Positions 40,911 to 47,549 of a stretch of DNA of 51,468 nucleotides are shown one piece after another. The notes under the pieces were generated by a model, which did not search any database, was not told where the DNA came from, and was given only the letters and a program-made list of their open reading frames with translations. The stretch is from a bacterium. GTDB lineage: Bacteria; Patescibacteriota; Minisyncoccia; Minisyncoccales; RBG-13-42-11. A program made the translations under genes and the position numbers. The stretch is taken from positions 1 through 51,468 of the forward strand of contig JAUSLA010000015.1 of NCBI GenBank assembly GCA_030646565.1. Reading direction: 5' to 3'. Each line of letters starts with the position of its first letter. Within the stretch, counting starts at the first letter, position 1.

Positions 40911-41840
40911 ATGTTTACAGCTTTTGTCATTATTGTTGGGTTGGTGATTTTTGAGATAATCAGCAGCATTGATAACGCTATTATTAACGCTCATATTCTA
41001 AAAACAATGAGCGTTAAATGGCGGAAAATTTTTCTCTTCTGGGGTATTTTTACCGCGGTTTTTCTCGTCAGGGGCCTTCTTCCTTTAGCAATTGTTTGGC
41101 TGTCGGTTCCTGAAATTGGTTTTTGGGGAGTATTCCAATCAATGTTTAAGAGTTCGCCGGAAATTGCCCAGACAATAGAAGCAAGAAAGGGCATAATTTT
41201 GATTGGAGCCGGCGTTTTTCTTTTATTGATTTATCTTCATTGGCTATTTTTGGAAAAAAAAGACCCATTTTTTGTTTCTGACAAGTTAATAAAGCCGAAT
41301 TATGGGGTCTGGTTTTTTGCTTTTGCCGCCATAATTTTAGTCTCCCTTTTGTATCTGGCAAGAAATTCTTACCAACTAATGTTATCTGCCGCTATAGGTT
41401 ATGCCGTGTTTTTTATTATGTATGGTTTTCGCGAGCAAGCGGCCAAAGAAGAGGCAAGACTGGAGGGTGGCCAGTCACATTTGAGTAATTTTTCAAAATT
41501 AATGTTTCTTGAAGTATTGGACACTTCTTTCAGTTTTGACGGAGTCATTGGCGCTTTTGCTTTTACCACTGCAATCCCTTTAATTTTTTTGGGAAACGGA
41601 ATAGGAGCTTTGGTTGTAAGACAATTGACTATCAGCGGCATAGAGCGGGTGGAAAAATACAAATGGCTGAAAAACGGGGCAATGACTTCAATAGGAATTT
41701 TAGGCGTTTTTATTATTGCCAAAAGTTTCGGCGTCCATATTCCAGAATACTTGCCCACCTTAACGACTATCGGGCTTGTAGGTTTAACCTTTTGGAGGTC
41801 TCATCAACTTTTAAAAAAGAATAACCAAGGTGCTAATTGA
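40911..41840 (+). CDS. Integral membrane protein (DUF475/TerC-like)
   Basis: The protein is polytopic and contains SSIDNAIINA. Confidence 0.55.
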   Translation: MFTAFVIIVGLVIFEIISSIDNAIINAHILKTMSVKWRKIFLFWGIFTAVFLVRGLLPLAIVWLSVPEIGFWGVFQSMFKSSPEIAQTIEARKGIILIGAGVFLLLIYLHWLFLEKKDPFFVSDKLIKPNYGVWFFAFAAIILVSLLYLARNSYQLMLSAAIGYAVFFIMYGFREQAAKEEARLEGGQSHLSNFSKLMFLEVLDTSFSFDGVIGAFAFTTAIPLIFLGNGIGALVVRQLTISGIERVEKYKWLKNGAMTSIGILGVFIIAKSFGVHIPEYLPTLTTIGLVGLTFWRSHQLLKKNNQGAN

Positions 41841-41916
41841 CACCCATTCCCATTTGAACCCCGAAGGAGAAAACTTCGTTTTCCCTACGGGGCAAGTTTC
41901 AACGCTTTTATGTTAA
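41830..41916 (+). other. 28-codon upstream ORF: a duplicated tatD N-terminus interrupted by a family B element
   Basis: The GTG start overlaps the upstream gene's stop. The ORF encodes VLIDTHSHLN, then element-derived codons, and its stop TAA (41914-41916) overlaps codons 2-3 of tatD. Confidence 0.55.
41859..41896 (+). repeat. Family B hairpin element (38 nt)
   Basis: The sequence is CCCCGAAGGAGAAAACTTCGTTTTCCCTACGGGGCAAG. Confidence 0.75.
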
Positions 41917-42818
41917 TTGACACTCACTCGCATTTAAATTTCAACGCCTACAAAAATGATGCAGATGAAGTGATAAAAAGAGCACTAGACAATGATATCT
42001 GGATGCTCAATGTCGGCTCGCAATTTTCCACCTCAAAAAGGGCGGTTGAAATAGCCGAAAAATATCCAAAAGGAGTGTATGCCGCCGTCGGCCTTCACCC
42101 AATACATTTAACTGAAGGAATTTTTAAAACAAAAATTGATACAGAAGAAATTGAATTTAAAAAAGCTGAAGAAGATTTTTATTACGAAAAATATAAAGAA
42201 TTAGCCCGATCTAAAAAAGTTGTCGCTATCGGCGAGGTTGGTTTAGATTATTATTATCGGCCAAAAACAAAAACAAAACTTGAACAGTTCAAAAACAAAC
42301 AAAAAGAAGCGCTTTTGGCGCAGTTGGCTTTAGCCAAAGAGCTGAATTTGCCAGTAATTTTCCATTGCCGTTCAGCACATAAGGATTTGATAGAAATCCT
42401 CAACTATAAAACAAGAACTACAAACTATAAACCGAATGGAGTAGTTCATTGTTTTACCGGAAATTTGGAAGAGGCAAAACAATATCTGGAATTGGGGCTT
42501 TATCTTGGTTTGAACGGGATAATTTTTAAGCTGGAGGTCGCTGAGACTTCGTCTCATCTCTCATCTCGTGCGGCTTCGCCGCACTCGGTTTTAGACGAAG
42601 TTATCAAAAATATTCCTTTAAATAGAATTTTAGTTGAAACAGATTGCCCCTATTTGACGCCGCCACCTTTTGAAGGACGAAATGAACCTTTGTATATTAA
42701 ATCAGTTGTCCAGCGAATAGCTGAAATTAAAAATATGAACTACGAGGAAATAGCTAAAATTACTACTGAAAATGCCAAAAAATTATTTACCGAGTTCCGT
42801 GAAGCGGAACGAAGGTGA
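41910..42818 (+). CDS. tatD: TatD family metal-dependent hydrolase
   Basis: The protein has MLIDTHSHLNF, GEVGLDYY, FHCR, HCFTG and VETDCPYLTP. It contains one internal family A insert, and a second copy supplies the last 9 codons and the stop. Confidence 0.9.
   Translation: MLIDTHSHLNFNAYKNDADEVIKRALDNDIWMLNVGSQFSTSKRAVEIAEKYPKGVYAAVGLHPIHLTEGIFKTKIDTEEIEFKKAEEDFYYEKYKELARSKKVVAIGEVGLDYYYRPKTKTKLEQFKNKQKEALLAQLALAKELNLPVIFHCRSAHKDLIEILNYKTRTTNYKPNGVVHCFTGNLEEAKQYLELGLYLGLNGIIFKLEVAETSSHLSSRAASPHSVLDEVIKNIPLNRILVETDCPYLTPPPFEGRNEPLYIKSVVQRIAEIKNMNYEEIAKITTENAKKLFTEFREAERR
42534..42590 (-). repeat. Family A element in frame in tatD (19 codons)
   Basis: GAGGTCGCTGAGACTTCGTCTCATCTCTCATCTCGTGCGGCTTCGCCGCACTCGGTT is translated as EVAETSSHLSSRAASPHSV. 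Confidence 0.8.
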
Positions 42819-42867: not shown

Positions 42868-43704
42868 ATGCCAAAAGTCGCAATTATCGGAGGAAGCGGG
42901 GTTTACGACTCCGGAATTTTTAAAAAGGAAAAAGAGGTTAGAATAAAAACTCCGTTCGGCTATCCTTCCTCGCCAATTGAAATCGGCGATTTTCTGGGCC
43001 CCGAAGGAGACGCTTCGCGACCCTACGGGGCAAGCCAAAAAATCGCTTTTTTGGCAAGGCACGGAAAGAATCATCAATTTCCTCCGCATAAAGTTCCTCA
43101 AAAAGCCAACCTTTGGGCTTTGAAAAAACTAGGCGTTGAAAGAATAATTGGAATTTGCGCTGTCGGCTCTTTAAAGAAAAGTTTTAAGCCGGGAGACATT
43201 GTGATTTGCGATCAGTTTATAGATTTTACCAAAAAACGGGAATACACTTTTTATGATGGTTCGACGAGCTCACCACTTAGCAGTAAGGCGATACACATTT
43301 CTTTGGCCGACCCTTTTTGTCCTGAATTAAGAAAGTTATTTTTTAAAGAAGCGAAAAAGCTAAAAATCCCAGTTCATCAAAAAGGGACTTATCTTTGCAT
43401 CGAAGGGCCGAGATTTTCAACTCGGGCGGAATCAAAATTCTTCAGAAATTTTGCCGATATTATTGGAATGACTTTAATTCCTGAAGCGGTTTTGGCCAGA
43501 GAATTGGAGATTTGTTATTTATCTTTAGCTATGGTAACCGATTACGATGTTTGGCAAGACAGCCCTGTAAGCGCGGAAGAAGTGATAAAGACAATGAAAG
43601 ACAACTTGGAGAAAATCAAAAAATTATTAAAAAATACCATTCCTCAAATTAAAATTCAAAGAAATTGTCCTTGCAAAACAGCTCTCAAAAACGCCAAAAT
43701 TTAA
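42868..43704 (+). CDS. mtnP: S-methyl-5'-thioadenosine phosphorylase
   Basis: The protein has MPKVAIIGGSGVYD, FLARHG, GPRFSTRAE and GMTLIPEAVLARE. I placed the start at ATG 42868. Confidence 0.85.
   Translation: MPKVAIIGGSGVYDSGIFKKEKEVRIKTPFGYPSSPIEIGDFLGPEGDASRPYGASQKIAFLARHGKNHQFPPHKVPQKANLWALKKLGVERIIGICAVGSLKKSFKPGDIVICDQFIDFTKKREYTFYDGSTSSPLSSKAIHISLADPFCPELRKLFFKEAKKLKIPVHQKGTYLCIEGPRFSTRAESKFFRNFADIIGMTLIPEAVLARELEICYLSLAMVTDYDVWQDSPVSAEEVIKTMKDNLEKIKKLLKNTIPQIKIQRNCPCKTALKNAKI
42999..43034 (+). repeat. Family B hairpin element in frame in MTAP (36 nt)
   Basis: CCCCGAAGGAGACGCTTCGCGACCCTACGGGGCAAG encodes most of the GPEGDASRPYGAS segment. It lies just before the conserved FLARHG. 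Confidence 0.75.
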
Positions 43705-44750: not shown

Positions 44751-44781
44751 CCATAAGGAGCTAAGCTCCTTATGGTTTTTT
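44751..44781 (+). terminator. Rho-independent terminator
   Basis: The sequence is CCATAAGGAGC-TA-AGCTCCTTATGG followed by TTTTTT. Confidence 0.75.
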
Positions 44782-44976: not shown

Positions 44977-45063
44977 ATGAATTATAATCCGCAGGTAATT
45001 GAAAAAAAGTGGCCCCGTAAAGATTTTTCTATGGAAAAATCAACGGGGCAAGCAGAAACATGA
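44977..45063 (+). other. 28-codon upstream ORF: a leuS-like N-terminus interrupted by a family B element
   Basis: The ATG at 44977 opens an ORF encoding MNYNPQVIEKKW followed by element-derived codons. Its stop TGA (45061-45063) overlaps the leuS ATG (45060-45062) as ATGA. Confidence 0.55.
45013..45052 (+). repeat. Family B hairpin element (40 nt)
   Basis: The sequence is CCCCGTAAAGATTTTTCTATGGAAAAATCAACGGGGCAAG. Confidence 0.7.
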
Positions 45064-47549
45064 AATATGAACCGCAGAAAATAGAACCTAAATGGCAAAA
45101 GTATTGGGAGGAACAGGGATATTATCTGGCAGAGGATTTTTCAAAAAAGCCAAAAAAGTATATTTTATTTGAATTTCCTTATCCTTCGGGGGAAGGTCTT
45201 CACGTTGGCCACGCTAGGAGTTATGTTGCCATAGACGCCCTTTCCAGAAAAAAAAGAATGGAAGGATATAATGTTTTATTCCCAATTGGCTGGGATGCTT
45301 TTGGTTTGCCGACAGAGAATTACGCCATCAAAACCGGTATTCATCCCCAAAAAGCAACCGAGCAAAACATCGCTAATTTTAAAAGACAAATGAAAAACTT
45401 GGGCCTTTCTTTTGATTGGTCAAGAGAAATTAATACCACCGACCAAAAATACTACAAATGGACTCAATGGATTTTTCTTAAACTCTACGAGAGGGACTTA
45501 GCTTACCAAGCGGAAATTCCGGTGAATTGGTGTCCTTCCTGTAAAATTGGCTTGGCTAATGAAGAAGTTGTTGGCGCAGGATGCGAGAGATGTGGGACTC
45601 CTGTTGAAAAAAAGATTTTAAAGCAGTGGATGCTTAAAATTACCTCGTACGCAGACAGATTAATAGACGACTTGGAGATGGTTGATTATCCAGAGAGAGT
45701 GAAGTCCCAGCAAAAAAACTGGATCGGTAAAAGCTATGGCGTAGAGATTGATTTTAAGACAACAGGGGCGGAAGAAATAGGCGAAGAGGACAAGTCCTCT
45801 TCTTCACCTTCGTCCCGCAAGCGGGACTCGGTCATTAAGGTTTTTACCACCAGAGCAGACACTCTTTTTGGAGTAACGGCAGTTGTTTTAGCTCCCGAAC
45901 ACGAAATTATTTCAAAATTAAAATCTCGAATTTTAAATCTGAAAGAGGTGCAAGATTACATTAATCAAGCGGTAAAGAGGAGTGAATTTGAGAGGACAGA
46001 ATTGGCGAAAGAAAAAACGGGAGTTGAGTTAAAAGGAGTTAAAGCGATAAATCCGGCTAACGGAGAAGAGGTGCCGGTCTGGGTAGGAGATTATGTGGTG
46101 GCTGTTTATGGCGGCGGAGCGGTTATGGTAGTTCCTGCTCACGATTTTAGGGATTACGATTTTGCCAAAAAATACGGCCTGGAGATAAGAGAAGTTGTTT
46201 CGGTTTGCCCGCCGAAGCCCGAAGGGCGAAGGTGGGGCGGAGATATTTCGAGGGAAGCTTTTGTTGGCTACGGCGTTTTAATTAACTCGGGCCAATTTAA
46301 TGGTTTAACTTCTGAAAAAGCAATTGAAGAAATCACCGCCTGGCTTGAAGTAAGGAATGAAAGTAAAAAAACAATAAAATACAAATTAAGGGACTGGGTT
46401 TTTTCCAGGCAGCATTACTGGGGAGAGCCGATTCCAATTATTCATTGTCCAAAATGCGGGGCAGTGCCGGTGTTAGAAAAAGATTTACCGATAGAGCTTC
46501 CTTATGTTGAAAAATATCAGCCAACAGGAACGGGTGAATCGCCTTTGGCAGTGATTTCAGAATGGGTTAACGTTGCTTGTCCTGAATGCGGCAGCCCGGC
46601 TAAAAGGGAAACAGACACTATGCCCAACTGGGCTGGTTCTAACTGGTATTATATAAGATATTGCGACCCGGATAATAGCAAAGAAATAGCCGATTCTCAA
46701 AAATTGAAATATTGGCTTCCGGTTGACTGGTATAACGGCGGAATGGAGCACACCACTTTGCATCTTTTATATTCTCGTTTTATATATAAATTTCTTTTTG
46801 ATATCAGGGTTGTTTTTCAGCCAGAGCCCTACAAAAAAAGAACTTCACACGGCATGGTCTTGGCCCAAGACGGCAGAAAAATGTCAAAGTCTTTCGGAAA
46901 TGTTATTAATCCTGACGATATTGTCCGGCAATATGGAGCCGACACTCTGCGACTTTATGAAATGTTTATGGGGCCTTTCGGGGAAACAATTGCCTGGAAC
47001 AGCCAAGGATTGAAAGGGTGCCATCGTTTTTTGGAAAAAGTTTGGAGATTAGCTTTAGAATCATCTGCAGAAAATAAAACCAGCGCTAATATATTAAGGG
47101 CCCTGCACAAATTGAATAAAAAAGTGGAAGAGGACTTAGAGGAAACAAAATTTAACACGATAATTGCATCTTTTATGGAGTTTGTTAACCTGGCCCTGGA
47201 GAATGAAAAAGAAATTAGTAGAGAGGCAATTGAGCGATTCTTAATTTTACTTTCTCCTTTTGCTCCCCATATTTCAGAAGAGTTGTGGGAGAAGATTGGG
47301 AAAAATGGCAGCATTCAAAAGCAAGAATGGCCAAAGTACGATCCGTTATTAGTTAAAGAAGAGATTGTTAATTTGATTATTCAGATCAATGGAAAAGTCC
47401 GGGACAAGATTGAGGTTGACCCGGCTCTTTCCGAAGAAAAAGCCAAAGAGATTGCGTTTGCGCGAGAAAAAATTAAAAAATGGATAGATGGCAAGGAAAT
47501 AAAAAAAATAATTTTCATTAAAGATAAGATCATAAATATCGTCGTATAG
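45060..47549 (+). CDS. leuS: Leucine--tRNA ligase
   Basis: The protein has EFPYPSGEGLHVGHARSY (HIGH region), KMSKSFGN, and the editing domain with VFTTRADT. Confidence 0.95.
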   Translation: MKYEPQKIEPKWQKYWEEQGYYLAEDFSKKPKKYILFEFPYPSGEGLHVGHARSYVAIDALSRKKRMEGYNVLFPIGWDAFGLPTENYAIKTGIHPQKATEQNIANFKRQMKNLGLSFDWSREINTTDQKYYKWTQWIFLKLYERDLAYQAEIPVNWCPSCKIGLANEEVVGAGCERCGTPVEKKILKQWMLKITSYADRLIDDLEMVDYPERVKSQQKNWIGKSYGVEIDFKTTGAEEIGEEDKSSSSPSSRKRDSVIKVFTTRADTLFGVTAVVLAPEHEIISKLKSRILNLKEVQDYINQAVKRSEFERTELAKEKTGVELKGVKAINPANGEEVPVWVGDYVVAVYGGGAVMVVPAHDFRDYDFAKKYGLEIREVVSVCPPKPEGRRWGGDISREAFVGYGVLINSGQFNGLTSEKAIEEITAWLEVRNESKKTIKYKLRDWVFSRQHYWGEPIPIIHCPKCGAVPVLEKDLPIELPYVEKYQPTGTGESPLAVISEWVNVACPECGSPAKRETDTMPNWAGSNWYYIRYCDPDNSKEIADSQKLKYWLPVDWYNGGMEHTTLHLLYSRFIYKFLFDIRVVFQPEPYKKRTSHGMVLAQDGRKMSKSFGNVINPDDIVRQYGADTLRLYEMFMGPFGETIAWNSQGLKGCHRFLEKVWRLALESSAENKTSANILRALHKLNKKVEEDLEETKFNTIIASFMEFVNLALENEKEISREAIERFLILLSPFAPHISEELWEKIGKNGSIQKQEWPKYDPLLVKEEIVNLIIQINGKVRDKIEVDPALSEEKAKEIAFAREKIKKWIDGKEIKKIIFIKDKIINIVV
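45779..45832 (-). repeat. Family A element in frame in leuS (18 codons)
   Basis: AGGCGAAGAGGACAAGTCCTCTTCTTCACCTTCGTCCCGCAAGCGGGACTCGGT is translated as GEEDKSSSSPSSRKRDSV. Confidence 0.85.

Follow-up and report, generated by a model that had tools for sequence, protein, structure and literature searches.

The Rickettsia palindromic elements (RPEs) are reportedly the subject of Ogata et al. 2000, and the REP, REPIN and BIME elements of E. coli and Pseudomonas, together with the RAYT transposases, are said to be covered by Nunvar 2010, Ton-Hoang 2012 and Bertels and Rainey 2011. The RPEs have been reviewed in PMC10969869. They are palindromic, lie in protein-coding genes with the frame preserved and also in non-coding DNA, and on translation add peptides to the surface of housekeeping enzymes that remain intact in other respects, all of which applies as well to the short hairpin element considered here, called family B. 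REP, REPIN and BIME elements share with family B the form of short imperfect palindromes, a terminal tetranucleotide, inverted doublets and mosaic composites, and in both cases HUH Y1 RayT-type genes occur in the same genome group. The hairpins that bracket RAYT genes in Patescibacteria come from the same host group as family B and are likewise tolerated in frame inside genes, and the PATEs derived from IS200/IS605 have, as family B has, hairpin ends, a 3' tetranucleotide and neither target duplication nor terminal inverted repeats. A literature search found no description of elements such as family B in Patescibacteria.

The DNA analysed, referred to as the window, is a stretch of 51,468 nucleotides from a member of the Patescibacteria. 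A first-pass annotation had reported in it three hairpins opening with CCCCG and closing with ACGGGGCAAG, and these are indeed present where it had placed them, all on the + strand. E1 (41859-41896, 38 nt, CCCCGAAGGAGAAAACTTCGTTTTCCCTACGGGGCAAG) lies inside a displaced and diverged copy of the start of tatD, E2 (42999-43034, 36 nt, CCCCGAAGGAGACGCTTCGCGACCCTACGGGGCAAG) is in frame in the MTAP gene, where it is read as (G)PEGDASRPYGAS, and E3 (45013-45052, 40 nt, CCCCGTAAAGATTTTTCTATGGAAAAATCAACGGGGCAAG) lies inside a displaced and diverged copy of the start of leuS. The pattern CCCCG-N20-40-CGGGGCAAG has these 3 matches in the window when 0.01 are expected (none of 100 shuffles reached 3), and each copy folds as a single hairpin, with energies of -18.3, -16.0 and -16.8 kcal/mol for E1, E2 and E3 and z values against shuffles of -4.0, -2.6 and -5.3. 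Rfam 15 gave no relevant match for the window hairpins or for the 253-nt composites described below.

The selection argument of that annotation had been made to depend on the motif being repeated elsewhere in the genome. In its strict form it is not, as the only 3 copies in the 770-kb genome are those within the window, yet a looser scan of the same genome gives around 10 related or degenerate copies and the family is present in 78 of the 401 genomes of the order, with 1-16 copies in each, the 16 being those of G096 (a reversed control pattern gave 5 matches). Among the nearest relatives it was found in 22 of 61 genomes, with no matches to the reversed control, and it becomes thinner in other genomes of the phylum, where it was found in 25 of 300 and the reversed control gave 8 matches. 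The three window copies belong to one element family, and that family is real. Pairs of copies less than 25 kb apart are no commoner in genomes of the order than under uniform spread (a hand estimate from coordinates), and the 3.2-kb cluster of copies in the window is special for this reason. The cluster is partly common to contig L100, which has elements in the same three genes (tatD, MTAP and leuS).

The ends of family B are 5'-CCCCG and ACGGGGCAAG-3', giving a fixed 5-bp G+C clamp that encloses an inner stem of variable sequence; the CCCCG/CGGGG clamp and the CAAG tail are required by the search pattern and so are present in every counted copy. Lengths run from 33 to 51 nt, with 36 and 33 nt modal. 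When 51 distinct 36-nt copies are laid on one structure of 13 pairs, 92.8% of cells are paired compared with 72.5% in shuffles, and there are 128 double-sided changes compared with 41, with none of 500 shuffles reaching the observed pairing or changes and a one-column slide of the stem partner halving the pairing. The stem covaries strongly. Position 6, next to the clamp, is unpaired, position 10 is bulged (A in 42 of the 51 copies), and the three-base loop is TTC in 34 of the 51, which is GAA on the complementary strand. C-GAA-G forms an unusually stable DNA mini-hairpin loop, and its presence on the complementary strand hints that single-stranded DNA is the relevant form. Inverted doublets, in which around 30 nt separate the element from an inverted element-like hairpin behind it, were found in five genomes (G096, G107, G315, G170 and G060).

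Dispersed intergenic composites were also seen, with a length of 253 nt in G096 (L058 2404-2656) and 267 nt in G107 (L063/L064), and again in G315 (L067-L070). Each contains, besides its family B hairpin, a second hairpin in inverted orientation and a closing stem that is long (in G096 the unit has -95 kcal/mol), and there are at least 4 copies of the G096 composite, one of which, in L060, has its 3' half masked as N. The genome of the window has in addition a sister subfamily, CCCCCACACC...GGTGTGGGGGCAAG, in which the clamp is CCCCC/GGGGG and the tail again GCAAG, at C45:25139-25169, C45:26337-26367, C1:4462-4498 and C60:6480-6512. Two of these copies, 1.2 kb apart, have the flank TTGACAAAACTTATCCACAAG in common, and the copy at C60:6480, of 33 nt, is in frame in a long ORF. 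A further related copy at C63:373 is in frame close to the N-terminus of a secreted protein.

The gene that is host to E2 (42868..43704, + strand) encodes a protein of 278 aa which matches the MTAP equivalog NF006334 of NCBIfam (386.5 bits, cut-off 382) and PDB 2a8y (E=2e-84), and in which the conserved MTAP motifs are all intact. The proposal that the 36-nt copy adds a 12-aa insert before FLARHG of MTAP is borne out both by alignment to solved MTAPs, where a gap, GPEGDASRPYGAS, of exactly 12 residues falls exactly at the element, and by an empty site on contig L103. The insert appears to fall in a surface turn that joins two beta-strands ahead of FLARHG. In an AlphaFold model, itself of low confidence (mean pLDDT 55.6), strands 37-42 and 57-63 are linked by a coil that is formed by the insert, a placement that fits the position of the gap in alignments to solved structures.

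The 12 residues are absent from 10 of 10 MTAP orthologues of relatives, and E2 is found neither in the closest homologue nor in almost any other MTAP homologue. Three homologues drawn from a search of 5.8 billion proteins are decisive. P0002, on L103, is the closest known (89.6% nt identity) and is sister to the window MTAP in the tree (support 100/98). Its empty site, CTGGGCCAAAAAATC, has flanks identical to those of the window for 75 nt upstream and 37 nt downstream, and the filled and empty sites differ by exactly 36 nt, with a boundary that is ambiguous by 2 nt (CC). The MTAP copy would appear to be a recent event in its own lineage, although there may instead have been a precise loss in the sister lineage. 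The other two, P0003 (L100) and P0020 (L101), have inserts of 12 codons at the same MTAP codon as E2, which are decayed elements of another subfamily (that of L100 reads CCCCAAAGGAAAGTCTCCGACTTCCTACGGAGCAAG), and the tree that includes all three homologues requires at least two independent events at one MTAP site.

Other small inserts are found in this protein. The window MTAP has a second in-frame insert at around 43257-43283, GSTSSPLS (ggttcgacgagctcaccacttagc), that contains a short palindrome and is missing in 10 orthologues; variants of it (GSTSSPQ-A, GLTNSPQ-V) are patchy among many other homologues, and it therefore looks like another mini-element family. P0002 and P0113 have short inserts, LPAGRQV and LACRQAG, at different MTAP sites (alignment A2 columns ~206-213 and ~327-335), which look as if a single CCTGCCGGCAGG-type palindrome had been read in two ways. 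Several other MTAP homologues have N-terminal extensions such as SELPFKEAKxKMxTKSSS.

The first-pass annotation saw in the lengths of the three copies what selection would leave from random insertions. A table of length modulo 3, genic against other, was made across relatives, the genome itself having 3 copies, and the excess of multiples of 3 that had been predicted is there. Classified by their surroundings, around 55% of 63 copies are inside ORFs. Those for which a long ORF continues uninterrupted through the copy (n=35, with 23 sense and 12 antisense) have a core that is a multiple of 3 in 32 of 35 cases, compared with 16 of the 28 that lie outside a working ORF, in displaced gene starts, beside tRNAs or in intergenic DNA (Fisher's exact p=0.002). 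Three copies inside ORFs depart from this, in miaA and one further gene, with cores of 41 nt that come into frame when a single neighbouring base is added. Frame-breaking copies are excluded from gene interiors, and the argument for selection is supported. Part of the length bias must nevertheless belong to the family itself, since 36 and 33 nt are modal outside genes too and the untranslated copies are multiples of 3 in 57% of cases and not 33%. The other half of the original argument, that the insertions were random, does not stand up, as the MTAP site has been reused, different families have copies at the same sites of miaA, glyS and tatD, and copies at gene starts are always sense. With the MTAP site occupied in at least two independent lineages, insertion is therefore not random.

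All six phases are used by copies inside ORFs, the ~35 of these in relatives are all read through, and in the most frequent phase, which is that of MTAP, the translation is PEG...YGA(S/R). As all six phases are used, the conserved unit is therefore the DNA and not the peptide, and a motif at the level of the peptide is rejected on the grounds that all six phases and intergenic copies occur. One match to the pattern, in L039, is a false positive caused by a natural TrxB motif, GGGPAGITAGIYGAR.

The same inner-stem variants are found in unrelated genes of different families, with the variant of E2 differing at 1 nt from those that two other genes, of G053 and G014, contain and the variant TACAAATCC...GGATTATA occurring in 9 unrelated contexts, and it is therefore the element alone, with defined ends, that has been transferred. 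Exact comparisons of empty and filled sites reveal no target duplication beyond the possible 2-nt CC. In the flanks A is enriched at -2 and -1 only (47/80 and 46/80) and the element is followed by C or A and then by A, a weak target preference for AA ahead of the element and (C/A)A behind it. The complementarity of the flanks is no higher than in shuffles and there are in general no flanking inverted repeats, the exceptions being L087 (G081:C4) and L027 (G004:C12), in both of which the element exactly occupies the middle of a longer perfect inverted repeat (14 and 12 bp of complementarity in the flanks). Exact ends, no target duplication and flanks that are not complementary point to an enzyme that recognises the hairpin.

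Family B enters new sites precisely, is common to lineages of its order and is thinner across the Patescibacteria. The whole of the evidence is probably best explained if it is a miniature, non-autonomous, mobile DNA hairpin element whose copies are then filtered by selection. A structure-specific enzyme acting in trans would cut and join the element as a single strand, and passage between lineages could also occur by short-patch homologous recombination. Selection inside ORFs would then leave only copies that bring in no stop, do not disturb the frame and lie in loops able to accommodate them, with frame-breaking copies surviving outside genes or where an intact gene 5' end lies just downstream. 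Against this explanation, an active repeat would be expected in far more copies than the 1-16 seen in each genome and the 3 seen here, conservation is higher in the copies than in their flanks, and the one MTAP site has been hit more than once.

The enzyme might be sought in a REP/RAYT system, with family B as its REP. The hairpin would then be recognised in single-stranded form by a RAYT-type HUH tyrosine transposase encoded by genomes of the group, and would be cut beside its conserved tetranucleotide, which is CTTG on the complementary strand. The architecture is REP-like, being that of a short imperfect palindrome with a conserved terminal tetranucleotide, the inverted doublets with their spacing of around 30 nt are REPIN-like, and Pfam Y1_Tnp genes are enriched in genomes that bear the element (31 of 46, compared with 13 of 34 that are free of it; odds ratio 3.3, p=0.013, ignoring phylogeny). 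Furthermore, 2 of 4 Y1 ORFs of the order that were tested reach the NCBIfam RayT cut-off of 80, with 80.4 and 81.8 bits. However, at ~20 Y1/RAYT-like loci that were inspected the flanking palindromes, where present, are others and mostly perfect (examples that bracket RAYT-like genes are GTGGGAGGTCSGACCTCCCAC, CAACGAGGTCSGACCTCGTTG and AAAGGAGCTAAGCTCCTTT), and none is the CCCCG...CGGGGCAAG of family B. Only a single Y1 gene, a weak one in G128, has an element within 300 nt, the genome of the window has no Y1 match even though its insertion looks recent, and a low copy number and mostly intragenic location are unlike classical REPs. A RAYT link for family B is not supported, because the ~20 loci carry other palindromes and the genome itself is without Y1, and it is doubtful that the REP/RAYT account is the right one.

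The RAYT-like genes of relatives, of ~235-250 aa (L226, L227, L230, L231, L233, L234, L099 and others), carry a palindrome of their own, a different one for each gene, in three constant positions: shortly before the gene, within it in frame, and at its stop codon. Another palindrome, AAGGAGCTAAGCTCCTT, is found in the window at 44755-44771, after a hypothetical gene, and at C14:22824 and C58:1487 of the same genome; its core is the same as that of the hairpin bracketing the RAYT-like gene in G002 (L231), with the three copies here being without a transposase.

The copies at gene starts have a layout of their own. Upstream of the intact tatD (41910..42818, + strand; TIGR00010, 233.7 bits) is a uORF of 28 codons (41830..41916, + strand), made up of VLIDTHSHLN, E1 and a tail, that ends 4 nt past the tatD ATG at 41910. 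Upstream of the intact leuS (45060..47549, + strand, from the ORF list) is another uORF of 28 codons (44977..45063, + strand), made up of MNYNPQVIEKKW, E3 and a tail, whose TGA overlaps the leuS ATG at 45060 (ATGA). Both consist of a diverged copy of the first 10-12 codons of the gene plus the element, ending across the real start codon, and comparison with the intact starts has E1 and E3 ending exactly at CCCCG and CAAG. That the 38- and 40-nt copies are only in displaced duplicate starts, as originally proposed, holds within this genome. The displaced and intact tatD starts have 6 differences in 29 nt, all synonymous. A diversity-generating retroelement is rejected, as the differences between duplicated starts are not adenine-specific. 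In L100 the tatD copy is orthologous to E1 (36/38 identical, with the adjacent pseudo-start at 22/29, or ~76%), and the leuS copy is at a different codon and of a different subfamily from E3, again within a duplicate start; the gene there, at the leuS-equivalent position after MTAP, has class I aminoacyl-tRNA synthetase Pfam domains. Relatives have this layout too, at a miaB-like gene, PolX, mnmA, glyS and others, and copies at gene starts are in the sense direction in 11 of 11 cases (p=0.001), 10-25 nt ahead of the real start codon. A tRNA gene (anticodon GTC) in L078 (G158:C5:151070-153104, at around position 1001) also has its 5' part duplicated, with a 35-nt family B element interrupting the upstream copy. 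As the same layout is found at a tRNA gene, it is therefore made at the level of DNA, independently of translation.

The hairpin might not be selfish DNA at all, being instead a functional signal under selection. It could act as RNA, tuning the downstream start by way of the uORFs coupled to tatD and leuS, or it could be recognised by a host protein, as DNA or as RNA. The uniform sense direction and the spacing before the start codon would both fit with this, as would the strong covariation of the stem and a compensatory C-G to T-A change between the glyS copies L084 and L086. Copies are also better conserved than their flanks, at 36/38 vs ~76% in tatD and at 35/36 vs ~77% in the pair L036/L093 (G002/G089), which is not the behaviour expected of a passive relic. 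Set against these points, the MTAP copy is absent from the closest and nearly all other homologues and the older copies at that site have decayed, the family occupies all six frames, unrelated genes and intergenic DNA, is patchy across genomes and has no Rfam match, and the duplicate and element at the tRNA gene mean that translation is not needed. A functional signal is therefore improbable as the explanation.

A mobile element is equally not required if homologous recombination simply moves alleles that bear the element, with new sites arising by rare illegitimate recombination promoted by the hairpin. It is apparent that distant genomes have copies at the same site in miaA (G060/G002), glyS (G182/G098), an ORF (G002/G089, L036/L093) and tatD (own genome/L100), with several sites common to different families. 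The miaA genes of G060 and G002, which are of different families, are ~75% identical in DNA overall, yet a tract of 105 nt that starts at the 5' end of the element and takes in the next 62 nt is identical at 103 of 105 positions (p=2e-10), and this is a recent conversion or transfer patch between families with the element at its edge. The displaced gene starts, moreover, differ from the intact ones in the way that orthologues of other lineages do, as with the synonymous differences in tatD. Nevertheless, the MTAP insertion is exact to the ends of the element, without any co-converted flank differences over 112 nt, and identical variants are found in unrelated genes, and an absence of dedicated mobility is accordingly hard to credit. 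The miaA genes of L016 (G060) and L040 (G002) have up to three inserts, each in one genome only, as G060 alone has a second family B copy, of 48 nt, and G002 alone a double-hairpin element of ~70 nt. A phage vector finds no sign in its favour, as of 80 pattern matches examined in viral contigs the 10 that fold as hairpins are all G+C-rich and unlike family B.

The mobile hairpin element favoured here may be of a more unusual kind, although this is speculative and unlikely to be correct in all of its parts at once. Family B could be a site-returning ('homing-like') single-hairpin element of an undescribed kind with ends set by an enzyme. It might return, in lineages independent of one another, to identical sites of conserved genes, and it might pass between families in conversion patches of very short length that begin with the element. 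Integration among the first codons of a gene, or within the 5' part of a tRNA, might leave behind a duplicated gene start that allows residence in essential genes, with its sequence being kept or refreshed more strictly than the surrounding coding DNA. If it is true that site return and duplicated starts come from the insertion mechanism, then this would point to a way, not described before, by which a 36-nt element moves and survives in essential genes. Site return, conservation above that of the flanks, a conversion patch edged by the element and the mechanism of the duplicated starts are the features that could raise interest in the family.

Genomes of the ultra-small Patescibacteria are thought to be streamlined, yet MTAP, MiaA and aminoacyl-tRNA synthetases, all of them essential enzymes, carry translated scraps of selfish hairpins. 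Family B offers a clean case of this, with an empty and a filled site that have identical flanks, frame selection that can be measured and spread between families. There is also a practical side in that such inserts inflate or distort protein alignments and gene calls in genomes of candidate phyla, with false N-terminal extensions and uORFs as the result.

When family B is set beside the known systems it fails the defining tests of each, namely size and host for RPEs, transposase, copy number and location for REP/RAYT, duplication for MITEs and the target for IS200/IS605. Whilst RPEs are ~100-150 bp and are found in Rickettsia (Alphaproteobacteria), family B is 33-51 nt and is found in Patescibacteria, so that the two are separated by size and host, and unlike RPEs it has a fixed G+C clamp, a CAAG tail, a variable inner stem and an association with duplicated gene 5' ends. 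REP elements occur in hundreds of copies, are mainly extragenic and have a cognate RAYT, in contrast to the 1-16 mostly intragenic copies of family B, for which none was found. The hairpins that bracket RAYT genes in Patescibacteria are 19-27 nt, nearly perfect and specific to each RAYT gene, whereas family B has CCCCG/CGGGG ends, a bulge, a mismatch and a CAAG tail and is common to many families. IS200/IS605 elements insert 3' of a fixed target of 4-5 nt and have two end hairpins, whilst family B has one hairpin and a weak AA. A classical MITE has terminal inverted repeats and a target duplication of fixed length, neither of which family B has, and integron attC sites are at cassette boundaries beside an integrase, whereas family B is mostly inside housekeeping ORFs. 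In function family B is a case of the RPE phenomenon, and in architecture it is nearest to REP/REPIN.
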